A stretch of DNA of 58,529 bases, counting the filler, from Sphacelaria rigidula (Eukaryota): assembly GCA_964200075.2 (NCBI GenBank). It is 9 parts of 9 records of this genome, joined end to end, with 100 filler letters (N's around TTAATTAATTAA, not from the genome) between each part and the next. Parts side by side here need not be neighbours in the genome. Positions count along the whole stretch, not along the records: positions 19,546 to 25,959 come from CAXNAA020020211.1; 8 more parts are not named here. The stretch is one strand, 5' to 3'. The notes below the pieces were generated by a model, which made no database searches, was not told the origin of the DNA, and saw only the letters and a list, made by a program, of their open reading frames with translations. The position numbers were made by a program, and so were the translations under genes. Position 1 is the stretch's first letter. Each line of letters opens with the position of its first letter. Below are positions 11,610 through 57,815 of the stretch, piece after piece.

Positions 11610-12159
11610 CTGGAACAAGGAGGAACGCGAAGACAAGGGAGCGCCGAAGCAGAGGTGCTGCAGTACGATTTTTGCCCCCCATGTGAGACAAATATTTTCT
11701 CCGTGGAATGAATGCATCTTGTGACCCATGGTTTGTCGCCACTCTTGCGTTTCATTGAAAACGCGTCAGGGCATGAGCAGCGAAGAAATTTTGACGAGTC
11801 AACGAACGGGGCACGGGAGTGTTGATCTAGATCCTCGACACAGGTCTCAGGGGTACCAGGGAAGAGGCGGGTTGACTCCCGGAGACCATGGGTTCGTCTC
11901 GAGAAAGGGGAGGGATTGAAGAATATTTATTTTTATTTTTTATTTTTATTTGTCGCACTCTAAATCCGTTCCCTTCCTCGGGACAAGTCCGTGGTCTCAA
12001 GGGATCAACCCATCTCTCCCCGGTAGAGGGTGTGACGAGAAAAAAATAGGACTCAAGAGTGGCCATGTACTTCGTGCTCAAAGGGGTGAGGCTATCTCCT
12101 ATGGGATTGGTTTCTTGTATTCTAGGATTCTTTAGTTTCGGGACACTTGACATAGTGAG

Positions 12160-12517
12160 TGTTGTCGTCCCATCTATTCTGCACGCCGGTCTACACCTTT
12201 CGATATGTGTGAGCGCACCAGCCGGGGCCACAGGAGGAACGTTAACCCAGGGGTATTATATATATATATATATATATATTGTTTTTAGTTCTTCGCCTCC
12301 CTTCTGCGGTGCTTGCCTTTTATTTTTATGGCGAGAAGGTTTCGGCAGTCCCTTTCCCTCGTCGACCGTTGAGTCGAATCTTGTGTGCCCACGACACAGT
12401 CCCTCTCCACTGTTGGGCCTGTGCGAGAAAAAATCCCAGATTGCACCGAGATTCGAACCCACGACCCAACCGTCAGAAGATGTCGAGGTTACCAACTGAG
12501 CCACCGGGGCGACCGGC
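12160..12517 (-). mobile_element. tRNA-derived SINE (copy 1)
   Basis: The minus-strand head GCCCCGGTGGCTCAGTTGGTAACC...GGGTTCGAATCTCGG has Pol III A and B boxes but no clean cloverleaf. The body is homologous to 46485-46810. Confidence 0.85.
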
Positions 12518-12840
12518 TACACGGCTACAGTATTTGATCCTAAAAAAAATGTCACACTTAGGAATATAGCCCATGTCTCCGGTTCGCCCAGCTCCGAGGT
12601 TTCGAGAACGACCTCTGAACAAAACTCGATCAGTCAAAAGAAATATGTATTTAGGCTTGTACCGATTTTGCTCGTGAAAACAATATTATCCTGCAATAGC
12701 ATATTAAGCGAGGATGTTTTTTTCGTGTAGATGTTTCGTTTCTCGCCTTCTTCTGCGGGCTGTTTGGGTGATGGGTATGGGTGGTGTGCTCCTTGTACTC
12801 TGAGACCACGGGTTCGAGAGATCGAGCTAATGTGATTGAT

Positions 12841-12867
12841 ATAATAATGATAATAATGATAATAATG

Positions 12868-12930
<63 letters not shown>
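12841..12930. repeat. (AAT)n microsatellite at contig end
   Basis: Directly visible. Confidence 0.97.
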
Positions 12931-13129
12931 NNNNNNNNNNNNNNNNNNNNNNNNNNNNNNNNNNNNNNNNNNNNTTAATTAATTAANNNNNNNNNNNNNN
13001 NNNNNNNNNNNNNNNNNNNNNNNNNNNNNNACAAAAAGGCGGGAAGAGGATGTGGCGCCGGCCGAGGATTTCCGCGGTGCGCCTTCCCCCCCCCCCCCCC
13101 CCCCCCCCCCCGCCCCGAACCAACCCCAA

Positions 13130-13879
13130 GTTGATAGGGCTGTATGGAAAAAAAATCACGAAAGGGCAGGCTGGAATAAGGTGGGATGGAGAAGTCGAGA
13201 AAGTATGGAAGGGGATAGGAGGAAACCAAGACGAAATACTGTCCTTGAGTGAACATGCGGGGTAAGAGGCAAAAGTAAGAGACATGTTTCAAATAAGGGG
13301 AGGAGAAGCGCTCAGACGCAAAGTAGACGAGGAAGAACACCTGAGGATATACGGGGGGTTGAGAGAGTGGATAGGGATGAAAACATATCTGCATGGCCCA
13401 ATGGACGCCGCGAAAAATCTGAAACTGCGATTTCGACTTGAGGACCTGGACCTGCCGGAAATAATCAAGAGATATACTAGTAGTCGAGTGGAGGAGGGAG
13501 TAGATGCACGGAATTGCCCCTGTGGCAAAACAATAGGGAGCAGAGCTCACATAGTGTCAGAATATGGACTATACAAGGAGGAACGGGACGTGCTAGAGAG
13601 GGAAGTGCAAGACGTGGACGAAGGTGGCATGGAATCGTTTGATGCACTAGGCAGTAGCGAGAAAACTAAGGCTACACTAGGAGACAAATGGCGGCCACAG
13701 ACGGGGAAACGGGACCGGGATAAGATATGTAGATTGCTTTTTTTTTGTAGTGTACGGAAGAAACGTCATGAGCCCCGAGATGTTGGAGGTTTCTCCATCA
13801 GGAGTACGAACGGTGCTCCGTCTCGAAACAGATGCGCGGTCAACGGTCGAACGATGAAGGCAAGCAATTATATGAGTAC
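13130..13879 (+). mobile_element. 5'-truncated LINE (family B), ORF2 C-terminus with CCHC-like motif and 3' end ATGAGTAC
   Basis: Homologous to 19272-19445. The ORF contains NCPCGKTIGSRAHIVSEYGLYKEER. It is flanked by an imperfect direct repeat CCCC(T)GAACCA(A/G)CCCCA (about 13113-13128 and 13883-13899). Confidence 0.85.
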
Positions 13880-14877
13880 GTCCCCCTGAACCAGCCCCAC
13901 AACTGCCATCAAGGAAACGGCTATACAGCGCATGATAGCTGGTTTCAAACTGCACGAAGCGCCTCATATGGGCGGCATTGGCAAAAGCGATCCCAAACGT
14001 AGAAGGTTCCTGCTGCTCGGTGTGCTCTACTTTTGGTATTATGATTCACATCAAGATTTTTCCTCCGCTAGCAAGCCATGTTTGAGGGGGGCTGGGGGTG
14101 TGCTATCGCGGTATCATTCGGTACAAGTTTCACCCTCTGGTGCCCGATGTCCGACAACATGACAGCAAGAAGGGAACAAAAATGAACAAGACAAGGGCAT
14201 GACGAGCTGCGGGACGGCTTATACACTCCTCGACGATGATAGGTTTGCATTTGTTAGCGCAAGTATACAGGCCGCGGGAGAGCAGGATTGATCATTAATC
14301 GTTGCGACCGACGTGAAGGCGTGGGGGAGGTGCAGGCACAAGTACGACAAATCCAGCGGTAAGTAAGAAACACAACACCTCGTCGGGCGCTGAGCATTCT
14401 GTGAAGATGTTTCGTGAACTTCCGTGGGCACCGTAGGACGTATCTCTGAATATCGACATCAAGGGTATTTGAAGTACCCTTCACCGGCCGTGGGCGACAT
14501 CTCCAAGTGGCCCCTTCCGGCAGAAGGTTGGCCTAACCCCTTGCCCCCTCATGCTCCCTTCCGTCCCCTCCGGTATGGCTTGGAAGTTGTCCCTTCGATC
14601 TACTCCCTGAATCTTCGAGCAAGTCCCATTCTGCGAGCGATCATTTTCACACTAGACATGCAACAAGCGATACAACCGATTTTGTTTTCCCCCAGAAAAA
14701 CACAAGATGGATACAGACTTCATGTAACAAAGCTGACCGTTTTTCTTTCGCATATTGCCCTTTCCTTTTCCTTATTCTCTGTATTTTTTCTTTCCTTCAT
14801 TTTTTCTTGTATTTCCATTTTCCTTTTCCTCTTTCTCTACATTTTTCTTCTTTTTCCCGCTTTTGTTGGTTTTCTTC

Positions 14878-15420
14878 GCTACTATAACACAACCCAAAGA
14901 CAGACATGAAATGAAAAGCTGACCATCATTCTTCTTCAACCGACCGTGGCACAGCCCGGAAAAAGACGTGATTGAAAAAAAGCCAACCATCCGTTATCTT
15001 TAACCTAACACAGCACAGCCCGGACATGGACATGGAATGAAGAACCTAACCATCCTCTATCTTTATCTACCGTGACACGGCCCGGATATAGACATGAAAT
15101 AAAAAAAGTTGGCCATCATTTTTCTTCAACCTACCATAACACAGCCCGGATATGGACACGAAATAAAAAAGCTAACCATCCTTTTTCTTCAACCTACCAT
15201 AGCACAGCCCGGACGAAGCCAAGAAATAAAAAAAGCCAACCATCCTTTTTCTTTGATCTACCATAACACAGCCCGGACAGAGACATGAAATACAGAAGCT
15301 GGCCATCCTTTTTCTTTCACCTACCAAAACTCAGCCCGGAAATAGACATGAACTGAAGAAGCTCACCGTCCTTTTTCTTTAACCTACGATGACACAACAC
15401 GGATATCGACGTGAAATAGC
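14878..15420. repeat. Tandem array of about 9 copies of a ~63-bp unit
   Basis: The unit, approximately AACCTACCATAACACAGCCCGGACATAGACATGAAATAAAAAAGCTAACCATCCTTTTTCTTC, recurs with ~63-bp periodicity. Confidence 0.92.
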
Positions 15421-16632
15421 GAGGAAAAACAGCTCTATTTTCCCGAGTCAAAACAGATGTAACCGAGATTCTCCCCCCCACACCGAAACAAAGACACGAC
15501 AGAAATAAAACCAAAACCTGGACGTGTAAATAATAGAGTACAGGTTAACCACCGTTCATGTAAAAGAGAAAATACAAAATGCACAACAAGAATGGATAGT
15601 GTAGGGTCATCACCCCCTGACATTTTAAATTCACATGGAGGTTGGGGTCTCGTGGTAATATAACCGTAAACCCTCACCGCTCTCCGGTAGGCGGTGAAAA
15701 TCTGGTCTGTCATTTTCCTGAAATTTCCGACATCACAAGCAAAAGGCGTCTAACGAAAGGAAAGGGTGAATAATGCGTGACATGAACGTCAAGACCTACG
15801 GCACTCATGGAACAAGCACCTGACCAATGACCGACCACATGATCTACGAGAACGGGCACCAAGCGGTACGTAGACTTCCTGACATCTTGAAGCATAGAAG
15901 CTGGTGCAAAGTGTGGGAGAATCGTCGGCCAAGCTTTCAGCAGCGAAGGTCTACTCGGAAGCATCAGTGGAGTAGCGATCTATGGTGAACCGTACGCGGA
16001 GTGGGAAAAGCGATGTAGGGGACATCCCGATGTGAGTAAGACCTTGTGTTATGCATGTCATCCTTGAACCTTAAACGGTGAGAATGACCGCCCTGGAGGA
16101 GAGTAACCACTACAGCAGCGGGGCAAGAAGATAGAAGATACGATCGTAGGACGCCTGGATGGTTTACCATGAAGATCGCCTGGCACAAACGTGGGGTGCT
16201 TGTGTCAAAGGTGTTGAACTTGGCTTCAAGCTACGAGCCCTATGTTGGAGGCATTATTTAGTGTAGATGAGCCAGCAAAAGAACTGAAAGCCACCAGACC
16301 CCCCACAAGTACTAGGATTGGGGTATCCCAGTACGCTGACTACATCCCACCACAACACTTGAAACGAAGCTGGAGATTCTCTCGAAAGAGATCGGGAGGG
16401 AGACGGTAAGGAAGGGTGGATGGAGCAGTAGAGAGTGGGCGAGTAAAGTACTAGTAGTGCTGGTATTCGGAGTCCGTAGCGATATGACGTGGATAGAGTT
16501 AAGATGGAGGGTATGCATTGCTACTAAACAGCAAATCTAAGACGTAGTGCACGGGTAAACAAAGGGTAAGAAAGGCAGGAAGAGGTGAGTGCCCGGAAGG
16601 GGAAGGGGAGGGGGCATAGCGGCCAGGAGTAA

Positions 16633-19445
16633 ATGGACGAAGATCAAACCGGCAAGGGGAAGAACAATGAAGCAAGAAAATGTAGAAATAAAAACGACGG
16701 AGAGAGGAAAGTAGACAGCACGAGAGTGGATAATGATTCGGAAAGGAAGTTGAGAATAGGATCGTGGAACATGTGTGGGTTCGTCACAGACAAGCGCACA
16801 ATGATAGAGATAGCTCAACAAGTGAGTAAGCGCGATGGGAATCCAAGAGTCATGGGAGAAAGAGGGGGCGGAAATAGGATGCAAAGTTGGAGAGTACGCA
16901 TGGACAGAGAAAAAGCGGGAGGGACAGAACCCCCAGAGCAGGGGAGCAGGGGAAGTAGGATTCTTAGCCAAGAAATACCTGAGTGGAATTATAGAAGTGA
17001 TCGAAGACGCGAAATTCGACGAGGGCATATGGAAAAGGGTACCAGGAGAGCGGTGAACAAAGGACTTCTTCGTAGGGAACATGTATATATGCCCCTAGAA
17101 TCGAAGAGTACAGTGAACGATACAGCGTAGCGTAAATTTGAAGAGATAGCAGCAGATGTACGTAAGTATAAAATGCAAGGAGAAATAATATTGGTGGGGG
17201 TTTTAAATGTAAGTGTTGGAAATACAGGTCAACCGGATGATATCATTGGTCATTGGGCAATACGGGGAAGGAAAGAAGAGCATGGATAGGATGAAAATGC
17301 TGAAGTTTCTTGAGAATAACGAGATACAGACGCTTGACGATGAAGCACAAAAGCCAGAGGCGCAATGGACATGGACTAGAAAATGTCAAGACGAGAGAGA
17401 ACGGTCCGTTCTGGACTATATAGTGGGAGAGCATGGAAATAGTGAAGAAATGGACGTACATGTATGCGCGAAGGACGTGGGAACTAGAGATCATTGCCTA
17501 ATGTGGACGGAAAGCCAACAGTTGAGAGCTAAAATAAATAGGCGGGGTAGGAAGCTGTACAAATGGAGAATCGATACACTGGAAATTGATGAAAAACGGC
17601 AAGAGTTCCAAGAAGAGAGTATGGGAAGGTGTAGTGAATAAAATAAAAAAAGATGTCGATGGCGGGATGAAACAATATGGGTGGGAATGAAAGGGATCAT
17701 GGGAAACCAGGCAAGAAAGATAGACATGGGGATACAATAGCCGCGCTACGGACACAGAACGGTATAATGGTCAGTAGTTCGAAGGGGAAGAGAGAAGTGC
17801 CGGTCGAGCACTACCGTAAACTAGGAACACCAAAATAACCACGGAGTTTGACATAAAAATCGAAAAATAAATCAACGCGTGGTCAGAGGCAAATGTAAAG
17901 GCAACCGGAGGATAGTGGCTCGGAAGAATTGCAGAGAGAACTTACCAGAGATGAAGGAGTGTGTAGCTAAGCTCAAGAAGAGAAACGCAGCAGGGTAGAC
18001 GAAATAGCGAATGAGTTTCTGAAGTACGGGGGAGAGGGAATGGTTACCATGATGGCTATGCTGTACAACTGGATCTGAGAAAACGAGTACACACTCAAGA
18101 GGTGGAGAGAAGGAGTAGTCGTCAATCTTTTCGAAAAAAAGAGACACGACTGACCCAGGAAATTTTGGAGGTATAAAGCTACTGAGCACGGTAGGGAAAA
18201 CAGTCTGTAAGATTCTGAACGATAGAGTAGGAACGATGCTAGGAAATCAGCGAGGGACAAGCATGTTTCAGACCACACCGTACTTGCGTAAACCATGTGT
18301 ACACACCAGGTAAGATTATTCAGGATAGGAAACATTCCGGGCTGACAACGTACTGTTTCTTTCTGGACGTACAAAATGCTTACGACACAGTATGGAGAAA
18401 TGGGCGGTGAAAAAAGTCGTGGGAAACTGGGATCAGAGGAAAGATGCGGAGAATATAGTGAGAAAGATTACAGAATGTGCCAAAGGTGATACGGTGGTAG
18501 GCGGGGAAATATCAAAATATGCTGATATTTTACAAAGAGTCGCACACGGATGTACGTTACCACCCACTTTGTTCGAGGTATCTATATTGATCTGATACTA
18601 GCAATAGAAGCAGCAAAGCAAGGAGTCAAGGTGGGTGAAGATATGGTATCAAGATTGATGGCCGCGGATGATTTTGTAGGGATTTCAGGAACACCAGAAG
18701 GATTACAGAAACACATAGACAAGGGGCTATAATACAATGGGAAATGGAGAGTGAGCCCAAACGTCAACAAATGCGCGGTACTTGTCTGTAACGAAGACGA
18801 TCGAAATCCGGTAGAGTTCAAATTCAAATGGAAGTGGGGAGAAGAGGAACTGCCGATCGTAGACCAGTATACACACCTTGGCGTGGAGAGCTCAAGAAAC
18901 TGTTCTTGGGATGCACACATAAACAAAAGTACTTCGTAATAGAAAAGGGTAAGGCGCAGATAGGTAGAATGGACGTGATCCTCGGAGACTCGAACCTAGA
19001 TAGCAGGATTCAGATATGTATCCTGATGAACGTGGTTGTACCAAAACTGGAATATGCAGGAGAGGTGTGGGAGGAGAACGTGAAGTTGGTGAAGACGTCG
19101 GAGCCAGCACAGATGGCAGCGGATAAGAAGTACTTGGATGCTCGAAACCGACGAGTATACAGCATTGAATGGAGAGTTGGGAATGTACCCACTTGAAACA
19201 AGCAGAGGCATGAGAAAATTGCGATGGCAATATAGCGTTCGAAACATGCAGAGAAAGAGATTCCCAGCTATAGTTGATAGGGCTGTATGGGAGAAAAGTA
19301 CGAAAGGGCAGGCTGGAATGAGGTGGGATAGAGAAGTCCACGACGTATGGAAGGATATAGAAGAAAGCCAAGACAGAATACTGTCCATCGGTGGAGATGC
19401 GGGGTACAAGACAAAAGTAAGAGGCATGATAGAAATAAGGGAGAA
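16633..19445 (+). mobile_element. Degenerate non-LTR retrotransposon ORF2 (APE endonuclease plus reverse transcriptase), family B, possibly RTEX-like
   Basis: APE motifs LRIGSWN, GIQESW, GEVGFL, RSVLDYIV, RDHCL and RT motifs AAGVDEIANEFLKYGG, LLSTVGK, FFLDVQNAYDTVWR, GCTLPPTLF, LMAADDF, YTHLGV, broken by many stops and frameshifts. The clade call is an inference. Confidence 0.9.
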
Positions 19446-20299
19446 NNNNNNNNNNNNNNNNNNNNNNNNNNNNNNNNNNNNNNNNNNNNTTAATTAATTA
19501 ANNNNNNNNNNNNNNNNNNNNNNNNNNNNNNNNNNNNNNNNNNNNGGTATACAGAAAACCGTACCTTACAGAACACAACCTTGCTATATTCAACCATGAA
19601 AATATGTAAGGTTGATTAATATTCCGTCCTCAACGAAATTAGCCGCCTGCTCAGCTCTTCTCCGGTGCAACGTCCTCTTCTTCAAAATGGACCTCCGGAG
19701 GCTCCCATCTGTCCTCACCAGCGTCCATGGCTAGCCCAACCGCCCACCCTCGCCGGTGCCCATGATCCCAAACAATGCCTCCTCTACTTCGTTTCGTGAA
19801 AAAACACTTCCTCCCTCGTGATGCACTCTGGTTCTGGTCTGTAGTAAGCGTGTCTCTCATCGAGGAGGCTCAACCAGACCTAACCCGCCCGTCGACGACC
19901 GCTTCCCCTTCATCCTTGTCGCCGAAACCAGTCTGCACACTGGCACACGCTCCTTTGATCAAAGGTATGTGCGCGCCAGCTTTCGACAGGGGTGTCGTCT
20001 GCCTCCGCGAACACACCGAATCTCATACATGCCCATACTCAGGGCGTTGTCACATATCACATTGCTTGTAACGTGGGATACGCCCGTACTCAGCAGGGTG
20101 TTTTGACATATTCTGCATTACAGCTGCGGTGGGTGTGCCTGATGAGCACCGTGCTGACCCAACTCGAACACCACACTACTGCCTTGAACAAGGGTAGTAG
20201 TAAAAAGGGATCACTCCTTGTAGTAGTGAAAAGGGGTCAGTCCTTGAAGGTGATTTCGGCCCTACACCCGCAGAAACAAATACCCTCCCCACGCCGTAC

Positions 20300-20608
20300 C
20301 GATGGTGAGGCACCCATGAGGCAGTGCATAAGCCATGGCTGTCTCTGGAAGTGGCGTTACCAGAAAATGAAGCAACTCATTGGAAGCTGTCATCCAACTG
20401 CAAGAAAAAAAGTAGGTTTCGGGCCGAACAATCTTAGCAGGATGCAACTCACCCTTCATGCGACTCGCCGAACACACCACAGCGCTTCGCGCCTGGTGAT
20501 TGATTGCGAGCCTGATCCGGCGAAAACCCGGCGTGCTCCGTCCCGGCTTTGTAGGGATGCGAGGTCAATGGTTTTCTGACTATTATGGCATGTATGATCA
20601 TGGGTATA
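20300..20608 (+). mobile_element. Dispersed retroelement 3' fragment (family A). Other copies: 6345-6400(+), 20805-20880(-), 22521-22560(-), 32574-32634(-), 38951-38987(-), 39088-39145(+), 50190-50490(+)
   Basis: The sequence GGCTGTCTCTGGAAGTGGCG...GGGCCGAACAATCTTAGCAGGAT...CCGGCGAAAACCCGGCGTGCTCCGTCC...GGTCAATGGT...GCATGATCATGAGTAC is shared, in whole or part, across five independent contigs. Confidence 0.85.
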
Positions 20609-21089
20609 CGCTGTACCGACACGGTCGGTCGCGGCCTTCGTTGGAGGACGGCGGGGAACGGAGATAGATAGGGTTAAAGCGATATAATGGTGAAACCCAC
20701 TCTCAATCAGCGCTCTGCTCTCAATCTTCTCACGAAAACACTGTTAGAGATTGTTCGCCCCGGGGCGTGTTGATTATCCTGCATATGAATGGTAGCCTCG
20801 AACGAGGTGCTTTATTTTCTGGCATGGCCACTTCCAGAGGCAACCGAGCGCAACACTGCCTCACACGGGTGCCTCATCATTTAAACCCCATTTAGTGCGA
20901 TCATCCCCTTGGTACGAAATTGGGGTTCTCCGCCCCACGCATTATGATCTTCGACAGGGTGGTTCACGCTCATCAATCAACCTAAAATCACCCATCCACC
21001 CGCAGAAGTTCACGTCTGTTAGGCGTTGGGCCGTGAACTTTTGAACAATTCTGCTGTGGGACATTTCGCAACTTCCGCAAGGTCGAATC

Positions 21090-22091
21090 TTTGTACTACC
21101 GCTTCTCGGGGGTCTCAGGGATTTGAGGAAAGCTTGGATCCCGCCGGACCCCCGATTTATCTATTTTGAGCCAAAAAGTACAAATATTTCGTTCATCGAA
21201 CGTTGCGTGATGATCCATAGCAAAAAATGTGCAAAACGTTCAGGGCCTGACTCCTAAAAACGGCGTGAAGCTTTGCCCGTTTGTGTTACGGCGTGAGCTT
21301 GAAAAATGCAAACTATGAACTACTTGTTTTTTGTATAAAAACGTTTTTTTGGATGAAATTACCCTTATAAAGGTAAGAAACACTGTATGAGTTTTCTGAG
21401 TTCTTCCCCCAAACTTTGTACATATGTTCCTTGGACTACCCCGGGACGTATAATTTTATTTTACTTTTTGAGTCATTATGTACCGCTTCCCGGGGCTCTT
21501 CACGTTGGGACCCCCGGAAGCCGGTAGAGAACGAAACAAAATGAAGTACTGTATGGTAAAAAACACAATGTTTTCATTTGGAGCATCAATACGTACGGAA
21601 AGCCAAGTCTGAGGGCGATCTAGGCTTTTTTATGGCAGGTACAAGGGAAACCGCCACGAGGCTCCATGGGTCTTTCGTACGCAGCATCAGTGGAAATTAG
21701 ACGTCGCCAAAATTTCACATCACCAAAACACCATGGTTTCGGGTATACTTCGACCCCATTGTAACGGTTTTAAAATCTGTTTTTTCCTGTTAGGCTCCCG
21801 ATCTGGTGGCGGCTAGTACGATTTGAAAGCATGTGGAGATTGAGTGAAAATTGGACTAGGAATTCGTATTTTCGATTTCAGAACAATTTGAAGGGCGCTG
21901 ATTGGTCGACGTACATTTTCGTTCTTGCACCACCACTATGGACCTAGACAAAAATTCGGCTATGTCATGCTCTTCAGCTGTTGTTCATGGCAATCAGAAT
22001 GATATCATAATATATGCGACTATTGCATAAGTATTGCGAACGGCATTTGCTGATGGCACAATTTTGGGTGATCAGCGTGAACCAGCCTGTA
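21090..22091 (-). mobile_element. ~1-kb non-autonomous DNA transposon-like repeat with terminus TA|CAGGCTGGTTCA
   Basis: Reverse-complement homology to about 47109-48100 on a different contig. Both copies stop at the same TACAGGCTGGTTCA boundary, a Tc1/mariner-like TA-CAG end. The second TIR was not found. Confidence 0.7.
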
Positions 22092-23291
22092 GCTCGACAA
22101 CCATCCTGGTTACCGCAAAAAACAAGCAAGCGAAAACAAAGGTCACCTGGGTGCCTGTCTTATGCAATGATCGCCGTGTTTTACACGTCGTTGCCAACCG
22201 TTTCCAACCCTGAAAAGGGAAAAACCCAGGGGGAGGGGTGCATGGTACCCTAAATTACAGGCTACGGGCACACTCGTTTCACGTTACACATGCATATTTA
22301 TAGAGAGGTTGAAGTGTGGCTTTGTCGGATTGGTGCCAAAGAAGTGGTTCCTCCTGTGACGGCGGTCTCACCTTTTCAGGAGGAGGGGCACGTACGATGA
22401 GAGTAGTGAAATGAACAAGGGTGCAAATCTCAGTCTGGTGGGGGAGGGGAGTGATGAAGGCACCGTGGAGCACCCGCGCCTTCTTCGTTACCAAGGGAAA
22501 CTGCGATGGAGAGGGGGGGGGTACTCATGATCATGCATGCCATAGTCATAAGACCATTGACTGCGATGCGGAGGGGGGGGTACATCAGTTAGAAGGGTGC
22601 CAGCTACTCCCCGCCAACCAACCATCAGATAGCAGTCCCATTACCTGATTTATGTATATGGTCGTACTCTTGTCACTTCTTGATGTCAAAACTTCTCCCC
22701 GCATTTCTTGAGGTATACCTGGAAAATGTTCTGCCACGGTTGTACCTGGAAATTGTCCTGCCACGGTAGGGGTTGCACATTAATTTGGGCCCGAATATCT
22801 CTCATTGAGGGCCCCCTAGGGTTAGGAGCTACATAACAATATAGGTCCGGGGTATTGCCGTTCCAAAATTCATTCGAGAGACCGCCAGCCTATTGGAGTG
22901 CCAATCGTGGCATGCTCTCACATATTTCATTCACTATTTTTGGATGTGCGGTGCCGGGCTCTCCACAGTTTAAAGCTGATGAATACTTTGCGCAACCCTA
23001 CCGTCGTAGGTACAACTTCGGTTGAAACGCCCCATATCACCATCATGCAGACGAACAATTCAAGCAAGCAATCATTTCCAGAAACCTTAGCCCTCACTCT
23101 AACCCTAATTTCGGTCTGGCGCTTGCTGTGCATTTTGTGAAAAACCACCTCATGAGACTATCGCAGGAAGGCCAACTGCTCCATTCATTGCCACGCGAAT
23201 GGCACACCGTAACGACGAAATTAACTCCGCGAAACCTACAGTTCGAGGAACAACGTACCGTCGGAGGAACGGTGGGAAAAGCGGCATCACC

Positions 23292-25311
23292 ATGAACAAT
23301 TACCCATTGGTGAACGCAATCGTGTGGACACTCTTGTTCGCCTCCCTTCAAACGCTGCGCTGCGTCGAGGGAAAGAAGTTTCTCAAAAGAGGTCAAACCT
23401 TCGGCCCCAAGGAGCACATTCGGTTAGCCGATGAAGGGCAGCAACTGGAGCCGTTTAGCCCCGGGTGGGCGGAGCAATACTTTGACGCACCGACCACCCC
23501 GGAGGGAATCACACGAGGCTGCCATCCAGAGTTGGGGAGCTTCGCATGGCGACGCCATGGGCTCGGCAGCAACATCAACAGTGAGTCTGAATGAGCCAAG
23601 CTAGCTGCTTAGCTGTGTAAAGAGATACAATGAGTATCGTGGTAAGCGTGATCTCTAGTAAGATCTTGAAAGTGAGGTGAAGAGCTGATGACCGACAGAA
23701 CTAATACTTTGTTGTCATATTATGAAGGGGCTGTCTGCAAGATGGTCCGGAAACCCAACTCATGTCTAACGTGATATACTATTATGAAGAATCTGCTGAG
23801 CAGCTCAACAAACCGGTATGTATTCCGGTGTTGTCAAGTGTGTTCGCTGGGTATTCCACCCCGCTATGGTACTGGTAGCTTCCCAATGGAGAGAAAAGAC
23901 ACGTACACACGAACCCAGAGTGCACAAAAGAAACCATCCCTCACACATGAGATCTAGCCCTCTTTTCGCCAGAACTGGCTCCCCTGGTGAGAGTACGCTG
24001 ACTCCACTGACCATATCCCTCTCATGCCTCAGCTGCGGGTTGCTGAGTCCCCTTTGACAAAATAGAAAGGGGGGGGTCAGCCATCAGTGGTCGCTTTATC
24101 TACAACAATCCTCCATCCTCTCGATAGCGCATGTTCAAGTGGTCAGTTAACGGATGGAATACGGGAAGAATACACCACGTCAAACACCGGCCCTTCTCTT
24201 CTCGTGGCACCGCGAGCAGATTTCGTGAACGCGTGGGTGTACGCTTTAGCTGTCAAGAAGTGGAGCGGCATGTCCCTCATAGTTAAATCCGACCAACTTC
24301 GTAAGCTGAGCTGCGAGGAAGAGAGCAATGGGCGGGCATCAGGGGGCTGGGAATGCGTTTTCGCTCCCATACCACACCTGTGCAGATTCAACTCCACAGA
24401 GGTGAACGGGTGTCGTCGGTAGTCTATGGAGTAACTTCTGAACATTGACCGACGTCTTCGAATACTAACCCGTTTCAGTGGTTTTGACTGGCCAAGCGGC
24501 TACTTTGCGGGTTGGCCCGTACACCTCGGGAGTCGACGCACTAGCAGAATAAAGAAGGGTAGTCGGCATAAACCAAAACAATGTAGAATTAAACAACTCT
24601 TACGGTTCATGTGCGATGTAGGATGGTCGAAAGAGCCGTGTGGTTTCACACAAGGGATCGGCAGAAGTCACTCTATGAGACACGGGGGAATGACTGCAGA
24701 ATCTCCCTGTCAACGCCAACTACACTGTAAAATATTGCTTCGTGCTTATATATATATATATATATATGCTGTATATAGTGCGGCAGTTTGTTGTTTCAAC
24801 TGACTCAAAGCTACCGTCTCATTAATCAGGCGGTGCGGATACAGTCACTCCCAGGTGTGTGAATCTACCTGGCCGTGCTACGAGTGGGGTACGTCGCTTT
24901 TCTTGCCGGTGTTACTTAGACTTGATATGGGGTATGTGCACAATGTACAATCGAGGCCCGTCGTACGAAATACAAGAGCATATGAAGGCGCATCTTATAC
25001 ACTGAATACTCGCATGTACAAGATACTCGCCCATTTGAACCCAAGGGGTACGCGGTTGCCATGGGCTGGCCACGTGTCAAACTATAACACCAAGACGCTG
25101 TTGACCTGGCTACCCTTCGTGTTGTTCCCCCCTCATGCATTTCCGTGCGCAGCATTGGCAGGATGCTTTGGAAGCTACTCAGGATTTTTCCAAGGAAGAA
25201 ATATCCACGGCGCTTAACACAACTCAGGACGAAATCCGTTCACATCCAGAGCTCATCGAGCAGGCACTGGGCGGTTTGAACGTTGAAATTGATCACGCTG
25301 GCGCGAGTGCG
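23292..25311 (+). CDS. GT23 (FUT8/NodZ-type) alpha-1,6-fucosyltransferase-like protein, 5' part. Exons 23292-23580, 24220-24401, 25153-25311
   Basis: In-phase GT-AG splicing gives an N-terminal hydrophobic segment (LVNAIVWTLLFASL), then HGLGSNINNFVNAWVYAL and GGWECVFAPIPHLC, which resemble FUT8 CG.GCQLHH..YC and GGWETVFRPVSETC. The catalytic VHVRRxD region is not on the contig. Confidence 0.7.
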
Positions 25312-25520
25312 GTAAGAACTCTATCCCGTCTTTGTACACCCGTATGTCTGGTGTATTGCATCTGTGTAGTCCTGAGACAGAGGGGGAGAGTTGGTTGTGT
25401 GTGAACTGCCGAGATCTCGAGAGACCTTGGATATGAATTGATGACTTTCTCTCTTTCTTTCTTTCTTTCTCTCTCTCCGAAAGGTGGAGGGTGCATGCCC
25501 GTGCGCATCGCATCGCATCT

Positions 25521-25521
25521 T

Positions 25522-25568
<47 letters not shown>

Positions 25569-25605
25569 CTCCCTCTCGCTCTCTCGCTCTCTCTTTCTCT
25601 CTCTC
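25521..25605. repeat. (CT)n microsatellite
   Basis: Directly visible. Confidence 0.95.
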
Positions 25606-26690
25606 CGGTATGAGTTATACCCATTCGGATAATAGTCAGGGGATTCCACACGGACATATCTGGAGCCAACAGCTCCTTCTCTCCATCATATGGAAAGTAT
25701 TATCAACGGCAGCTACCGTAGACCGCTTCACCACGGAACGAGCACAACGCTAACAGTGATCCGCATTAATACCGAAAATGCGTGTTCATGATGATCATGA
25801 TTTGGGCACATTGATCAATTCGCCATGAGTCGTATCAGCCCAGATCGCCGTCTGCTTGTTCGCGGTTGCCCTGCTGGGTCAGGCGTCATGCACGAAATGG
25901 ATCGCTTCACGCCCTTCGGATAACATATCTTGTGACCTTCGTAAACATGGAAGGCCCCCNNNNNNNNNNNNNNNNNNNNNNNNNNNNNNNNNNNNNNNNN
26001 NNNTTAATTAATTAANNNNNNNNNNNNNNNNNNNNNNNNNNNNNNNNNNNNNNNNNNNNTTTTAATCCTCCGGGTTCTTATCCTCAATCAAAAGCACCAT
26101 CCTCAACATAGATGATTGGTTGTTTAATCTTCGCGCACTAGAGCTCCGCGAAAATATATGTCATTCAAGGTTCAACCTTCCACAACCCCGTATCATGTCC
26201 TTACCGGTCTTGCCAAGACATTTGAAACTAGGCATAGGACACACTGCGGACGGCTATACTGTTCGAACGGTTCATAGTTTTCGTCCACGTTCAACTTTAT
26301 ATCTGCTCACCTCCCGAGCGGCTTGTGTGCCAAAGAAGGAGTAGCCGCTGCACGACGACTCGCAAAGCTGGTGCGCAGTGGAGACACAACCACGGTCACG
26401 ACAGGCGGCGGGGATTCATCAGGAAGAGGGTCACACCCGACGTTGTAGTGCGGCGAATGAAATGGCGGGAAAGAGCGCAGGCTGAACTTTCAGTAAGCCT
26501 ACACGTAACACAACTTTCACGTCCAGGCAGGCTGTGTTGGACAACGCGCACCCCCACACGAAAGCGGTGACCTCGCAGACGGTTCGTCCGAGTTCGTCCA
26601 CCTCGTGTTGTAGCACGTGGCAACATATAGCCCAAATGATACGGTCAAACCCAGCGTTCCTCCCGGCATTCATCTCTCGTTGACGCTCAC

Positions 26691-29600
26691 CTCATTCGTC
26701 ATGTTGTCGCCGTCGACGAGAATTCTAATGGCCATGATGCGACTGGAAGTATCAGTGTAGCAGCCCTTGTAAGTAGATGTGGGTGGCGGTGTGTCGTCAC
26801 CGTAGTACACGCTCATGGCGCTGCGCCCACCGCAAATTTCACTGTCGTCGCCCGTGCACTCCATGTTGCAGTTGTCGGATGCACCGAGACGCTCAAAATC
26901 ATCGCCCTCGACACCGCAGAAGCACTCGCTAGCGTACTGGGTTCCGTAGAAGGGAGCGCTGCCGCAGAATTTTGCGCACTCCTGTATACGAAGTCAGCGA
27001 AGGAGAGCGAGGGTAAGCAGCAGGTAGCAGCAGGAGCTGGAGGGAGGCATCGCACAGGACTCGGCCATATCAAAAATACCCACTGTATCGGAATGATTGT
27101 AGCTGATACTGTATGATATATCCTTCGCGTATCGGAATGTTCCAGGAGGTCGTTATGAACTTCGCGCTTGAAGCTGAATTGAAGGAGCTGGAGCTGGAGT
27201 CACGTAGCTGGATCTAGGGTAGGTACGACCACGCGCCGGCCAAACATCATCAACTCGAGTCGACAACCAGCGTATTGATATCGGAAACGTTCGAGGGAAG
27301 AAACGCGTTCATGACAGAAAAACCCATCAACATGCGAGTTGTATCGCTTCTTGATAGTTCCTCTCGCGCTTCGGCAGAACCGTAAAAGTATTGTGAGTCT
27401 GCTACATCAGGGACGGGGGGGGTACTCATTTGTTACTTGCCTTAGTCGTTTGATCGTTGACCACGCATGCCTATCGAGACGGAGCCCACTCCTAATAGAG
27501 ACATCTCCAATATTTCGATGCTCATTACGTTTCTACTGTACACTACCCAGAAACACTCTACATATCTTATCCCCGTCCTGTTTCGCCGCCTGTGGCCACC
27601 GTATACCTTCTAGTGTAGCCATTGTTTTCTCGCTACTGTATTATGCACAAAACGATTTCATGCTTCCTTCGTTCACGTCCCGCATTTCCCACTCTCGCAC
27701 GTTCCGGTCTTCCTTTTATGTTTCACATTCTGCAACTATATGGGTTCTGCTCTACTGCTTTCCCACAGGGGCAATTCTATGCGTCTACTTTCTGCTTTCG
27801 ACAATTGGGGGGGGTCCACTCCACGAAAAAACAGCTCGTGGGTGTGTCAGACGACCCAACACACTAGCGGTGCGCTTGTATTTGTGTCAACAAAACTTGC
27901 CGAGCGGTGCGATTGGGCGTTATTTATGGGTAACATGCGCGTTCGAACGACCGTTGCTGCATTCAACGACGGTTTGAAGTGGAATTTCGCGGAAGAAATG
28001 GTCCGATTCCCCCCCCACCCCCCCCATCGTGGCACGTCTGCTTGCACCACACTAAGTGTTGCTGGTATGCCCTGTCGTGAGGGCATTGCCGTGCCCTACT
28101 CACCGCCGAGGTCATGTCGGGGTCATTCTTTTTCGATTGTCCTGTCAAAATGCGGTCCCTGCTGCTGTCTACGAAGCAGCCAGCATACCCCGACGGGGAG
28201 TCATCAGTGAACTCGTAGACACTGATGGCGTTGCGGCCGCCGCACGTCTCGCTTGCGTCACCAGAGCACTCCATGTTGCATGTAGCATCTCCGAGGCGAC
28301 TGGGATCATCCGATGAAGGCCCGCAGAAGCACTCTTTACCAAACTGAGTGCCGAAGTAAGTTGAGCCCGCGCAAAGCGAGGCGCAGGACTGGAAATAGTA
28401 GGACGCGAGGTAGGGGGGATTGGGCAACGACGGTCGGCAGATATTTCAACGAGAACGCGTGGCTGCTCCCTCTGAAGCACCTGTCTAGATATATCTGATG
28501 CCAAAATACAGAGAGTGGGTATGGTATCGTGGGAAAGATGTGTGTGTACGTCTATCAACAGCGAAAAGAAATGTCTCCACCGTGCCTTTCAACTTGTCGA
28601 CAGATCGAAGGTACGCACGACTTACAATATCTCATGCAACTTGAAGCGCATCATCAAAGGATTGACAGGCAACCGCGCACAGCGCCTCAGAATCGAACTG
28701 ATATGCATCGAAAAACACCGACGAACACAAGGGCAAGTCAACAACAATTCGATGCACTCACATCAATGGTCAAGGAACCCTGGTTTTTAAATGCATCTCC
28801 AGAGAGTACACGGTCCCTGGTGCTGTCGGCGAAGCAGCCCAGGAACGCGTAATCCTCGGGAGTAGTCGTGTCGGGAGTGGGTGCAGGGGTAGGAGCCGGA
28901 GTAGGCTTGTCGGAAGGGTCCCTCCAGTTGGAGATGGTTTCCTGAGGGAGATTGAGGCGAGGCACACGTCGACGATAAAACACAATGATACGTCCGTTGT
29001 GGTTGAGCTGTAGCAGTCTACTACCAGGACGTCGTCTCCACCCCTCACCCCGCAAGAAAGGTTTACGGTCGAGAGATGAATGTACCGGACCCTTTTCCCC
29101 TCAGCTATTGCTCGTGCGTGGTATGAGGTCATCTGGCAACCATTGTCGATGACCGATCCAGTCTTTGACATCTCGCGGTCAACAATCATCACAACAACTT
29201 AGTGAACAATACCACGAACCACGAACCACCAAATACCCCTTGATCAACCATTCATCGCACTTTTGACACAAAATTCTGACCATGGTCTCCCTGATGACCC
29301 TGGCGTTGTCCTCCGTCGAGGTTCCGGTGGGCTTCTCTAGGTAGTTGACGTCGGGATTGGAGAAGTAGTTGATGACAGGTGCCGCCCAGCAGCTGTTGGA
29401 GTAGCTCATGACTGTACGGAACAGCCTGACCAAGCATGGTACGCGTGAGCGAACGGAGACAAATCAGGAAACAGACATGTATAATGTTAATCGCATCCAA
29501 TAACATGTCGTGCACCATGTACAGTGCGATGTGTCGAGTCGTAAGCATCTGTATAAACCAGCATCGTATTTCTTGGGCAATGTAAGGCTATTCCTCCAGT

Positions 29601-31865
29601 TTCCATCGCGCGGTGGAATGGGACTCGGCAAAACATCCGTGACTCTGGTTGAGGTGAAACCAAGGTATCAACGCAGCGACATAGGCGAGACGTTTGTTCA
29701 CCATTTTGGCTGCGGATCAGACCGCGACTCAACCATTCAGCTCGAGGCACAAAAAGGCGGTAGGTCACTCACGGATCGTCGCCCGAGCAGTATCGCATCC
29801 CGTGGGAGTACTCCTCATCAAAATTGCTGTTCTCGCGGTCGTGATGCGCTCCCATGTTGTGGCCAAACTCGTGGGTGTGGCTGAAGTTGTAGAAGCAGTT
29901 AGCGCCCACGGTGGAAAATCCATACCGGTCCTGGCCGAACCAGTAGAGCCACCTGTGGTGATAGAGAAAAGGTTGATGGAGGCACGATGATGACGATGGG
30001 TTAGAGGGCACCGTTTTTTGCGTATATTATTATGTTTCGCAAGCGGTTTTCACCGTAATAGAATTAACTGATGATGGCGGATGTCGAGCTCGTCCAGAAC
30101 TCGCGACTCAATTCACGCTGGAGATGGGTTGCCGGTAATTACGACTCATTCGGTATGTCTTTTTCGTAAATTGATTTTCCCGGGCTTGTACGTTGGATCG
30201 AACAGAAACAGCACGCGCATGATTCCAAACCAAAAACACGGATCGCATGAAAACGGTTTTCACGCATTATTATCCGGCGTCCCGGTTTGTCCCTCTAGTA
30301 GTAGCACCAACATCCAACAAACTATCGAGGCGGAGAGTACATGCAAGCGAAGTAGCGTTCAGGGTTGGGGCATTCTAACCAAGCAACTTTGGTGCGTGTA
30401 CACCATCGTATCAATTCACTCACGCAATCCCACAGTAATCGGAGAACTGGCCTACAAGCTGAACCAGATCAGCGCCGTACTCATCGCGCAGGGCTGCGAC
30501 CTCTGCGTTGCTATCCAACTCGTACAACGCCTCTTCGCTGCCGGTCTGCTGATCGTACGGCAACTGTAAGAACACGAAGGCAACAAGGATGGGGAAGACA
30601 CGGATCAACAGGAGTTCGGCTACCGCTGATTCTGCGGTACCAAAGGGCGCTGTGCGTCCTCCCAAACCTAGAAGGGGTGTTGCTAGGCGTTTCGTATCGA
30701 GAGCAAGGGACCGTATGTATGATGCCACTGAGAAAAAAAACCTTTACGCCGCACTTTTCGTTTTTGTTCTCATGGGCTAATTGACTCACACAGCAAAACC
30801 TCAGGATACGATATAAATGAAACGATCAGTTGGGGTTAAGAGTGCTGTAACAAGACTGCGAAATGAATGCAGAAGATAATCCTATCAATGATGTTTATTT
30901 TCTCTTGCAGAACATCGACAAAGATGCAAAGTTTACCTGGCCCACGTGAACAAGACGGTAGTGCACATCGAGGTCCGAATTGACGAAGGCCTCATTCGTC
31001 GAAGCGATGGCGTCCGTGATAATGGTCGTCATCTGCTCGTCGCTGATGCCTCCCAGCTGGCTCTTCGCCAGATCGCTATAGAGCATCATTACATCAACCT
31101 ACTCGATACATCGTGCGCCCGTGACGACCGTTATGCGGAGAGGGAAAAAGGGGTCGTCACAACAGTGGAAGAAGACACGGGTAGGGTGTGGGGTGTGGGA
31201 GGCGACCGGAGGCGACCGGAGAGGGGAGGTTGAGGGAGGGTTGTGCACATCAAGTCGCGATGATAATATTCATGGTGTGCGTGAACGAAGCTTCGTACAC
31301 AGATCGCGAGGGATAGAGATTAGCAGCTACCAGCCCCCCGTGGCATGGGCCATGAACCTTGGGTCTGTCACCTTCGCAGTGAATCCTATTCGCCGGAGCT
31401 ATAGACTCACGCCTGAGCTGATGACATTTTTGCTCCAACTCAGCTGTTTCCGAGTTTGGCTTCTCATCTTACCGGTCTGCAGCACTACTTTCGTCATATG
31501 CATTAAGATATTCGATATAAACACAGAGGTGACTATTCATCTCAGGCAAGTCTCAAACACATGACACGATTCCAGACCATACGAATGAGAGTAGTATTCG
31601 TGCGGTGAAGATGCATTCACTTGAGGTTTACGCTGTCCTCTGACGTGGCGCTGATATAGTTGGCTGGGCATAGATGTAAACTCATGGCAGTCATAGGACG
31701 TACCTCGGTCGATGTCTGGAGCTTGCGGTCCTTATTGGTGCGACGAACAGCTTTACGACCAACGCTGCTCGCACGCAGACGGCGGGAAGTAGTCCCTGAT
31801 GTATCAGGCTCGGAAGTAGGGGCCACATCATCTGGCAAGATCGAGCCCTTAAGCTCCAGTGACAC
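26691..31865 (-). CDS. Metzincin zinc metalloprotease (peptidyl-Asp/M72 or reprolysin-like) with tandem WSC domains, partial. Exons 31865-31704, 31098-30937, 30563-30424, 29952-29773, 29425-29281, 28941-28762, 28388-28104, 26981-26691
   Basis: Eight GT-AG exons splice in phase. They encode a basic RRLR/RKLQ pro-segment, VDVMMLY, ADLVQLV...CGIA, the zinc motif HEFGHNMGAHHD, a Met-turn RTVMSY, YFSNP...PTG...DNARVI, a PTPAP linker, two complete WSC domains (GCF.D...C...C...YFGTQ...ECFCG...C.M.C.GD..E.CGG...SVY) and the start of a third. Confidence 0.92.
27422..27802 (-). mobile_element. Intronic 5'-truncated family B LINE 3' end. Further family B tips at 32652-32830(-), 46907-47108(-), 58427-58465(+) and, degenerate, ~50685-50730(-)
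   Basis: Homologous to 13485-13879. It ends in AAATGAGTAC, with G8 runs on both sides (27415-27422 and 27807-27814). Confidence 0.85.
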
Positions 31866-32320
31866 CTGAGATGACAATGTTCGTGCAGGACAATTCGGGA
31901 GACGCTTAATGTGAAAAATGTTGAGCGTGGAAGGATGTGCGGGAGAACAGATATGCGGATACCAATGCGTTGCTAATTATTTGATTCTATCGAACTGATG
32001 GAGCCCAAGTAGTCCGCATGGACCATTCATCGAAAGCAAAACATTCATAACGCCCCCACGCTTACGTGCCCACATCATGTCTTGGCTCCGTCAAAAGCCG
32101 GTCGGCGAACCTGCGTGTACGTAGGGCTTCTAGGCACGATACGTCCGTCTGGGTATCAGAGAACAGGAAATGTGCTGTAATGCGTGAGAGGACCACGTGC
32201 TTAGAGGACCGCATCGGAATGTGAACATCGCCATGGCTAGCGTTAGGGTTAGGGTTAGTGTTGGGGTTATGGTCAGGGGCGTGGTACCTGCAGAGACTGG
32301 CCCGATTGGTTTTGGAAGCA

Positions 32321-32464
32321 TCGATCCTGCGGTTTTTTCAACTACGGCGCGGTCCTCTAAGCACGCGGTCCTCTCACGCATTACGGTGCTACATCGTAGT
32401 GTGATGCTTGAGAGGACCGCGTGCTTAGAGGACCGCGCCGTAGTTCGAAACACCTCAGGATCGA
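32321..32464. repeat. ~145-nt hairpin next to degenerate (TTAGGG)n repeats
   Basis: AACTACGGCGCGGTCCTCTAAGCACGCGGTCCTCTCA pairs perfectly with TGAGAGGACCGCGTGCTTAGAGGACCGCGCCGTAGTT. A partial arm copy lies at about 32178-32213 and telomere-like repeats at about 32238-32280. Confidence 0.9.
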
Positions 32465-33479
32465 CGTTTTAAANNNNNNNNNNNNNNNNNNNNNNNNNNN
32501 NNNNNNNNNNNNNNNNNTTAATTAATTAANNNNNNNNNNNNNNNNNNNNNNNNNNNNNNNNNNNNNNNNNNNNGGATGACAGCCTACAATGAGTTGCTTT
32601 ATTTTTTGGTATCGCCACTTCCCGAGACAGCCACAGGGGGGGGGGGGGGGCGTACTCATTTGTTGCTTGCCTTTGTCATTTGATCATGGACCACGAGTCC
32701 CTTTCGAGACGGAGCACTGTTCCCACTCCTAAAAGAGGCACCTCCAACATCTGGGCGCCAAATACGTTACTTCCAAACATGGCACAGAACATATTTTCAT
32801 ATCTCATCCTCTTCCTCCTTCACCGTCTGCAGAGGGTCGTAGTTCGGAATACAGCGCATTATGCTCTCATCCACAGGAGATGAGTGCTCGGATACAGGGC
32901 GGTCCTCCATATGTGCCGACTATGCTCATTGGGTCAACTTTGTAAATACAGATAGATAGCAACTTACAGGGGGACCTGGAAGTTTCGAATGCATAAAGTG
33001 TATAAAGCGTGACCAAAAAACGAAGACACTAAACTTTTCGCGAAAACATGTAATTATTTGTCAAATTTCATGCGTTATTCTGTTTTATATAATTTTCGTA
33101 AGGCCTTCGTGCCGGACCCCACTGTACGGAAGGGATGACAAACTGACGACGGAATCATATCATGGTTTCAAAGAGGTGAGCATACGCAATATATATATAT
33201 ATATATATCGGTATGTATTTTCACATTTGTGAAGTTGCAATGTGATTTCTACTTTTCACCGCCAATTGTCATCAGTGAAGTGAGTTCCGTGAGGAAATAA
33301 ATACTCACACCAGCAAGCTATGTAAGAGGAATATAGGTTTTGATACACGGTTATTTCGCAACCACTCTTGTACAACACAGGATAACTGCAAAGTGCACAT
33401 CAAAATTGCCGGTCAACGGTATAAGCAGACGGGGGAGTTCGTCTCCCTTAGTATCGCTATCAGCGCGGATGCGAAAGTA

Positions 33480-45446: not shown

Positions 45447-45490
<44 letters not shown>

Positions 45491-57738: not shown

Positions 57739-57815
57739 TGGTATGACATTTCGAAATACCGTATTTGGCAAGTACAGTAGGCGAGGAAATTTCGAAATAC
57801 CGTGGTATCGTAGGT

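Follow-up and report, generated by a model that had tools for sequence, protein, structure and literature searches.

The stretch of DNA analysed here (the window) comprises 58,529 nucleotides, filler included, from the brown alga Sphacelaria rigidula (GenBank assembly GCA_964200075.2). It carries repeated copies of the 3′ ends of two retrotransposon families: family A, a long interspersed nuclear element (LINE), and family B, its short non-autonomous partner. Most of these ends are closely followed by a run of Cs, as exemplified by the focal site at 22500-22584. The window is made of nine separate pieces of about 6415 bp (1-6415, 6516-12930, 13031-19445, 19546-25959, 26060-32473, 32574-38987, 39088-45501, 45602-52015 and 52116-58529), joined about every 6514 bases by filler linkers of the form N44-TTAATTAATTAA-N44 (6416-6515, 12931-13030, 19446-19545, 25960-26059, 32474-32573, 38988-39087, 45502-45601 and 52016-52115). 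Since the linkers recur regularly, the window is not one locus, and adjacency across them is artificial. The piece ends cut the copies at 38951, 39144 and 32574, together with a long LINE at 16406-19443. Piece 4 (19546-25959) is present in five public sequencing runs belonging to two studies, and contigs of four of these runs (X1, X2, X4 and X5) were placed on it at a likeness of at least 90%.

The plus strand of the focal site reads ACTGCGATGGAGA+G9 at 22500-22521, TACTCATG...CCATTG (TACTCATGATCATGCATGCCATAGTCATAAGACCATTG) at 22522-22559, and ACTGCGATGCGGA+G8 at 22560-22580, followed by TACATCAG. The central segment (22522-22559, minus strand) is a 5′-truncated family-B 3′ tip of 38 nt, or 40 nt counting the flanking C and G, which ends in ...CATGAGTA and matches the tail profile with an E value of 1e-11. 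On the element strand it is followed by C9-TCTCCATCGCAGT (22500-22521) and preceded by C8-TCCGCATCGCAGT (22560-22580), with ...CTGATGTA before the latter. These flanks, of 22 and 21 nt, are direct repeats that differ by two substitutions and one C, and they form the 3′ and 5′ copies of a target-site duplication (TSD) consisting of C8/9 plus 13 bp. In the 5′ copy the run stands at the outer edge, 13 bp away from the insert (B22521). An initial annotation of this DNA had placed a 40-bp tip between direct repeats of about 21 bp at 22521-22560, an arrangement that our analysis returned, with the repeats beginning C8 and C9.

The same 3′ end recurs throughout the window. A profile search for the tail recovered 11 copies of a 3′ module of about 75 nt ending in (A)TGAGTA(C), located at 13878+, 20606+, 22522-, 27423-, 32653-, 38954-, 39143+, 46908-, 50487+, 50686- and 58464+, with no further match above the E=0.01 level. 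The module spans GTGCTCCGTC to GAGTAC and is common to families A and B. Its terminal motif, ATGAGTAC, has seven occurrences in the window where 1.26 would be expected, a number reached in 0 of 100 shuffles. One of the seven, at 30477, lies in unrelated sequence and was set aside as not being an element. A run of at least five Cs was found within 20 nt downstream of 8 of the 11 tails, compared with a background rate of 1.8% (114,998 positions; binomial p 1.7e-12), and a run of at least seven followed 6 of 11, compared with 0.39% of background positions. No poly(A) tail or A-run of the L1 type followed any of the 11 window tails or the three copies found elsewhere (described below), and the earlier description of (A)TGAGTAC(G) ends that pass into a C-run without poly(A) was thereby borne out. 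Between TAC and the run, family A has a G in 7 of 8 ends (4/5 in the window, 3/3 outside it); in family B an A occupies this place in 4 of 5 ends, as well as in the contig consensus of X1 and X5, two of the three runs that list that loose end. Since this linker base is family-specific, it must be encoded by the element.

Family A proved to be the 3′ end of a LINE. The open frame at 13266-13886 (P0002) gave no match in a Pfam scan; it matches proteins of 567-1360 aa that carry an apurinic/apyrimidinic-type endonuclease (APE) and a reverse transcriptase (RT), with E values of 1e-63 to 6e-67, as well as a Sphacelaria rigidula protein (E 2e-52). The 1360-aa protein P0005 contains Exo_endo_phos at 170-392 and RVT_1 at 740-989, i.e. 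APE followed by RT in one open reading frame (ORF), and has, after the RT, a C-terminal CCHC domain of about 350 aa, seen by eye as the motif CPCG...H....C. When P0005 was compared with the window by tblastn, aa 1-1171 mapped to 16406-19443 on the plus strand, in several frames, and the C-terminus mapped to 13149-13868, 27769-27429, 32829-32659 and 47147-46914. Taken together, the P0002 matches, the P0005 domains and the tblastn map assign family A to the 3′ end of a LINE with APE and RT. The copy at 16406-19443 was missed by a Pfam scan of the 208 distinct window open frames of at least 90 aa because of its frameshifts, and was recovered by tblastn. That scan returned WSC (2), a PRMT_C-like match, NICE-1 and SEN1_N below cut-off, one unrelated RT fragment and nothing else.

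Copies of the family-A end were also found beyond the window, at two loci in a metagenome scan and at one in a set of prokaryote genomes (a eukaryotic contig binned into a metagenome-assembled genome, MAG); 0 loci were found in viral contigs. These copies lie in a marine metagenome contig (L001), a whole-genome shotgun contig (L002) and a contig of a bacterial MAG (L003/L005), and all three end in TAC-G followed by C8, C10 or C13. As no external copy reaches the 5′ end of the element, none of them gave TSDs. The L003/L005 contig is 5.3 kb long and consists almost wholly of the eukaryotic LINE, so its presence in a ‘bacterial’ MAG looks like bin contamination; in L005 the frame is uninterrupted over 1359 codons. 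In the family-A protein, which ends ...TKASNK, the corresponding DNA reads ...AAC AAA TGA GTA C, and the same is true of L001, L002 and L005. The stop codon therefore lies inside the terminal motif, leaving GTAC(G) alone between the ORF and the C-run. The 3′ untranslated region (UTR) is thus only 4-5 nt long (TGA, then GTAC(G), then the run), in keeping with the short 3′ UTRs of RTE elements, and for practical purposes it is missing. Because the ORF extends to within 4-5 nt of the element end, its final ~75 nt also serve as the 3′ module, which the partner has copied.

The copies in the window are old (72-83% alike), and those of family A are mostly 5′-truncated. The copy at 13129-13879 (plus strand; A13879) covers P0005 aa 1121-1359 and ends in ATGAGTAC, and the one at 27423-27802 (minus strand; A27422) covers aa 1244-1360 plus TGA GTA. 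At 32636-32829 (minus strand; A32652), aa 1304-1360 are followed by TAC-G-C15, downstream of which lies an internal family-B fragment (32574-32634). The tail at 46895-47147 (minus strand; A46907; aa 1281-1360) ends in TAC-GACCG-C7 and is joined upstream to a further repeat, X (47109-47990). The region 58411-58475 (plus strand; A58465) contains a 38-nt tip at 58427-58464, preceded by CGCCCCCCACC (58411-58421) and the 5 nt CGAAC, and followed by CGCCCACCACC (58465-58475). A diverged tail at 50672-50758 (minus strand; C50685) ends in TTGAGTA-C14 and has a C-rich tract (CCCCCACCTCACCCC) about 50 nt upstream. The most extensive copy, at 16406-19443 (plus strand), holds a near full-length ORF (aa 1-1171) with frameshifts and is cut by the piece end. 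A 63-bp tandem repeat of 8.6 copies lies in its 5′ UTR at 14879-15418 (plus strand). Alignment of the sequence that precedes the L005 ORF with 15610-16438 and with the 63-bp repeats at 15119-15377 indicates that the LINE 5′ UTR reaches back at least to 14879. Since the 63-bp repeats also head L005, they are part of the element, as a monomer-type 5′ UTR.

Family B shares with family A only the last ~75 nt, and a tblastn search of the window with P0005 revealed no ORF2 similarity in it. The initial annotation had treated both families as LINEs; this holds for family A, with its APE+RT ORF, and must be amended for family B, which is a non-autonomous partner of about 305 bp and not a LINE. A full element occupies 20303-20606 (plus strand; B20606) and is enclosed, within 20291-20619, by an 11-12-bp TSD, ACGC(C/T)GTACCGA, in which there is no C-run. 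A search of the family-B head (20200-21000) against Rfam, with E values up to 1, gave no match and thus no sign of a head of the kind found in short interspersed nuclear elements (SINEs), which derives from tRNA, 5S or 7SL and carries a Pol III promoter. A second full element at 50190-50494 (plus strand; B50494) ends in GAGGACA-CCCCTTCCCC. Two more copies are cut: a tip at 38929-38987 (minus strand; B38951) by a piece end, followed by C13-T-C8 and then by repeat Y (38927-38711), and a 3′ end at 39088-39144 (plus strand) by a piece start, ending ATGAGTAC-AACCTCC with no C-run.

Repeat X was seen at 21194-22091 (plus strand) and 47109-47990 (minus strand); the two copies are 77% alike, have no ORF2 similarity, and the one in piece 8 adjoins a family-A tail of 240 bp. 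X may thus represent another non-autonomous family, having a head of about 1 kb. Other contigs, from the public runs, join the end of X at 22091 directly to a G-run and a B tip. The X paralogues (21194-22091 versus 47990-47109, the former with neither the A46907 insert nor a C-run) were considered as an empty site and rejected, as the homology simply ends at the junction.

In the public runs, the family-B tail was present in 17,974 to 69,669 records per run. Loose ends beyond the 3′ end of the B tip (place 22513) numbered 368, 397, 163 and 68 in the four runs, and their consensus in all four continued with a further G14-G22 and then with nothing consistent (agreement 0.37-0.48). These loose ends are a C-run followed by unique flanks, genome-wide, beyond the family-B end. 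Downstream of 20583 the consensus was GGCATGCATGATCATGAGTACACCCCCCCC (GAGTACACCCCCCCC) in X1 (72 records) and X5 (25 records); X2 has no entry for 20583 among those listed. A joint that goes back 49, i.e. tip and run in tandem, was found in 5, 2, 1 and 0 contigs of the four runs (8 in total). The window itself holds 24 C/G runs of at least 7 in 57.8 kb, compared with a shuffle mean of 7.05, and nine of at least 11, compared with 0.025. Seven of those of at least 7 abut a tail and three stand at 5′ TSD copies. Long C/G runs without a recognisable A or B tail occur at 45448-45488 (C41), 19-71 (G19+G24), 4795-4805 (G11), 57976-57986 (C11) and 28009-28025 (C8AC8). The 14 of 24 runs of at least 7 that are unexplained may represent other RTE-X families, 5′ TSD copies or eroded tips.

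TSDs could be read in six copies with both junctions within a piece (B22521, A58465, A13879, A27422, C50685 and B20606), and in all of them except B20606 the TSD starts with a C-run or C-rich tract. In A58465 the duplication is CGCCCCCCACC / CGCCCACCACC, i.e. CGCCC(C/A)CCACC, with five extra bases at the 5′ junction. In A13879 it is GCCCC-GAACCAACCCCA / GTCCCCCTGAACCAGCCCCA, i.e. GCCCC(T)GAACCA(A/G)CCCCA, and the 5′ copy, GCCCCGAACCAACCCCA (13112-13128), stands directly after C26 (the two together at 13086-13128, plus strand). Repeat Y (13883-14102) starts within the 3′ copy, GTCCCCCTGAACCAGCCCCA (13880-13899, plus strand). In A27422 there is a C8 at either end of the copy, at 27415-27422 (3′ side) and 27807-27814 (5′ side), the latter run being 4 nt (AATT) from the 5′ truncation point; C50685 has C14 on the 3′ side and CCCCCACCTCACCCC on the 5′ side. 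The TSD-like repeats described earlier around 13130-13879, 27422-27802 and 58427-58465 were all reproduced by this analysis. The family-A linker G lies inside the TSD in both of the family-A duplications that could be read, from five family-A copies in the window.

Repeat Y provides a further view of target choice. The 3′ flanks of A13879 (13883-14102) and B38951 (38927-38711) are homologous to each other, and both Y copies start with a long C-run (C26 in one, C13-T-C8 in the other) followed by GCCCC(G/T)AACCA. At one Y copy a family-B element lies 5′ of the whole run, and at the other a family-A element lies just 3′ of the long run. As two different elements are found at paralogous Y runs, each of them chose the same run on its own. 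The long LINE in piece 3 probably has Y as its 5′ end, in which case A13879 and that LINE would be a head-to-tail pair joined by the C-run.

These observations bear on the initial claim that the C-run is derived from the target and that the element is tail-less. Insertion beside pre-existing C-runs is upheld, with the run at the outer edge of the 5′ TSD in B22521, A58465 and A13879 and C8 on both sides of A27422. That the run is wholly target-derived is not established, given a family-specific linker base and a family-A G inside both readable TSDs.

Based on this evidence, we consider it probable that family A is an autonomous LINE of the RTE/RTE-X type, that family B is its partner, and that both insert by target-primed reverse transcription at (C)n tracts. 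Under this model, the bottom strand would be nicked at the 5′ edge of the top-strand C-run, i.e. after the bottom-strand G-run, and the G-run would prime cDNA synthesis. A second nick 8-22 bp downstream would make the C-run the first part of the TSD, so that it comes to be present on both sides of the insert. The RNA would most likely end in the family-specific base plus Cs read through from the run flanking the donor, and these could pair with the G-run primer, much as L1 poly(A) pairs with its T-rich nick site but with (C)n in place of poly(A). The G that family A has both in the element and in the 5′ TSD copy is most simply explained if RNA and target have (C)G(C)n in common and pair with each other at the nick. 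Because each insertion would duplicate the target run, new copies would arise head-to-tail beside old ones and poly(C)/(G) tracts would multiply. A broader proposal, to which we tentatively give somewhat less than an even chance, is that the poly(C) run serves both as a DNA-encoded tail of the RNA and as a genomic address, so that the elements make their own landing sites, form head-to-tail arrays and have seeded the excess of poly(C)/(G) tracts.

One rival, which corresponds to the initial annotation’s view of a target-derived run, is pure endonuclease specificity, in which the RNA ends in GTAC(G/A) without Cs, the APE nicks beside a bottom-strand (G)n, and all Cs at the junction come from the target. 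The run lengths of the 5′ and 3′ TSD copies are about equal (8 and 9, 8 and 8, CGCCCCCC and CGCCCACC), which shows that these old copies did not gain a long additional tail and makes an RNA tail unnecessary; since this also fits pure endonuclease specificity, we keep that explanation as the main rival. Nevertheless, we judge it unlikely. A family-A G is found inside each readable family-A TSD and family B, presumably served by the same enzyme, has A; such a pattern in the linker base is explained more easily by microhomology between RNA and target. In addition, the runs in contigs with a likeness of at least 90% to the B tip exceed the C9 of the window by at least 14-22 nt.

At the other extreme, the (C)n tail might be carried by the element, through read-through, RT slippage or untemplated addition, with targets in which C-richness would be limited to a few bases of microhomology. 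The curated label ‘(C)n 3′’ given to Ectocarpus elements in a library table (PMC12477816), the long runs in the loose-end consensus, and the integration of B20606 without a run would all agree with this. It is hard to reconcile with the run of B22521, which is separated from the insert by 13 bp, with the C-rich 5′ TSD copies of A58465 and A13879, or with two families placed at the same run of the Y paralogues, one 5′ and one 3′ of it; in the same Ectocarpus library table the TSDs are listed as ‘C-rich’ (PMC12477816). We therefore regard an element-borne tail as very improbable. Chance or artefact, whether C/G runs introduced by sequencing or assembly (e.g. two-colour poly-G) or a coincidence in a C-rich genome, receives next to no weight from us. 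C/G runs are indeed abundant in the window; however, the association with tails has p~2e-12 against the window’s own background, the same junction appears in three unrelated assemblies and in contigs of four runs from two studies, and the runs are internal, are present on either strand and, together with unique sequence, form paired TSDs.

Along with the equal run lengths, several observations weigh against insertion at C-runs guided by the RNA. No C-run of at least five follows the tails at 20606, 39144 and 50494, the last of which is still C-rich (CCCCTTCCCC); the first two are the copies that had already been noted, at 20608 and 39145, as lacking a clear run. B20606 has a clean TSD of 11-12 bp without one, so a run is not obligatory, and in X4 the consensus of 104 records at 20583 shows no C-run. 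A search for TSDs of A32652, A46907 and B50494 gave no clear duplication, and two more copies are cut. No empty site was seen among the window paralogues or the contigs of the four runs, and no contig bridges 22509-22534; the pre-existence of the run thus rests on the TSDs of old, diverged copies. With regard to the RNA, the module start GTGCTC and end GAGTAC are complementary and could close two small hairpins (13804-13886 and other tails). This is the closing helix GUGCUC/GAGUAC with two hairpins that RNAalifold predicts, with a double change in only 1 of 19 pairs and an unfavourable covariation term. The predicted 3′ structure has no covariation support, and such a fold is no more than suggestive as a structure recognised by the RT. 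The motif GFRPNRSC gives a resemblance to RTE-X elements at motif level only, and placement in the RTE-X clade would rest on a match to the published description.

Several other features were recorded in the window. The Pfam scan located WSC-domain exons at 26673-26993 and 27966-28445 (both minus strand; E 1e-13 to 1e-14); A27422 and its two C8 runs lie between them on the same strand and are probably intronic. An RT fragment of a second, different LINE at 55959-56384 (minus strand; RVT_1 E 2e-17) is 38% identical to P0005 and adjoins 82-bp tandem repeats (55723-55917) that recur at 45798-46270 and 57740-58407. A 709-aa frame at 7021-9147 (minus strand) has a PRMT_C-like end below the Pfam cut-off and a C9 run (8315-8323) inside it; its identity is 73% to a Sphacelaria rigidula protein and 36-41% to proteins of Ectocarpus, Scytosiphon and Pylaiella. 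The frame is a useful marker of the host lineage and, with the WSC exons, points to a brown alga other than Ectocarpus. There is also an (ATA)30 microsatellite at a piece end (12841-12930) and a short interstitial TTAGGG-like repeat (two units of 18 bp; 32238-32273).

The features of family A resemble those of several known systems. According to work attributed to Malik and Eickbush (1998), RTE-clade LINEs reportedly have very short 3′ UTRs and simple-repeat tails. Family A is like them in that a single ORF encodes APE and RT, hardly any 3′ UTR is present, simple repeats take the place of poly(A) at the 3′ end, and SINE-like partners have this 3′ end in common with it; it differs in having single Cs as the repeat unit, in a TSD that opens with the same homopolymer, and in the C-terminal CCHC domain of the protein. 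L1 elements use a poly(A) RNA that pairs with the T-rich nicked strand at TT/AAAA. Our proposal is similar in that a homopolymer at the RNA end would pair with a homopolymer at the nick and the TSD starts with the tail base, and both show strong 5′ truncation, with microhomology where the 5′ end joins the target. In contrast to L1, the base is C rather than A, the tail would be DNA-encoded read-through rather than post-transcriptional, and there is a specific 3′ module common to the partner. R1-group APE LINEs of insects (Kibi/Koshi, Mino and Waldo) are said, from the work of Kojima and Fujiwara, to target di- to tetranucleotide repeats. They too are APE-type LINEs that insert into simple repeats, but they belong to another clade, and we know of no homopolymer (C)n target from the R1-group work.

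The closest likeness is to RTE-X elements of Ectocarpus, as described in a transposable element library (Genome Biol 2025, PMC12477816, Supplementary Material 3). In its table entries, RTEX-1a_Ec32 (5867 bp) is given as ‘single EN-RT ORF; (C)n 3′’, EN being the endonuclease, with a ‘C-rich’ TSD, and RTEX-2_Ec32 as ‘(C)n termini/TSD’, also C-rich. RTEX-N1 (607 bp) is annotated ‘60 bp 3′ end 83% RTEX-1/RTEX-2’ and ‘can be present in tandem’, its head being untraced by the authors; RTEX-N2_Ec32 is non-autonomous and 188 bp long, and Ectocarpus RTE-1/2 have a (CAA)n 3′ end (PMC12477816). The main text of that paper names RTE-X as the most abundant LINE group of Ectocarpus; the term ‘C-rich’ occurs 0 times in it and C-runs are not discussed there. 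As far as these entries describe them, the RTEX_Ec32 elements are like families A and B in having a single EN-RT ORF, a (C)n 3′ end, a C-rich TSD and a brown-alga host, and their length of 5.5-5.9 kb is to be compared with ~6.1 kb here if Y is the 5′ end. In both cases there are abundant short partners that share the last ~60 bp, have an untraced 5′ origin and are sometimes found in tandem. The two differ in coming from separate brown-alga lineages and in partner size (~305 bp versus 607 or 188), the comparison being one of descriptions only.

To judge from these library entries, therefore, the (C)n/(G)n-targeting system put forward in the initial annotation is not new. The C-run association and the C-rich TSDs do stand, and families A and B exemplify a trait that had been noted before in RTE-X elements of brown algae (PMC12477816). 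In our literature search, no paper was found that analyses a (C)n-targeting LINE, and the trait was met only as a supplementary-table entry without a mechanism. What this study adds is the extension of the ORF to within 4-5 nt of the run, the coding nature of the 75-nt module, the linker base inside TSDs, the head-to-tail insertions, and occurrence outside Ectocarpus.

LINEs that home to (C)n/(G)n are rare among described APE-type elements. They occur in marine metagenome contigs as well as in a second brown-alga lineage that is distant from the first, which suggests an old trait that this group of LINEs has conserved. For annotation, the short tips and their C-runs should be masked as RTE-X-type repeats. 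These families also offer a natural test of whether RNA-target pairing or endonuclease specificity sets the insertion sites of LINEs. If our proposal is correct, family A would be a LINE guided by a homopolymer, unlike the poly(A)/T-rich logic of L1, and its RNA recognition module would consist entirely of coding sequence; insertion at C-runs may explain the abundance of long poly(C)/(G) tracts in these genomes.

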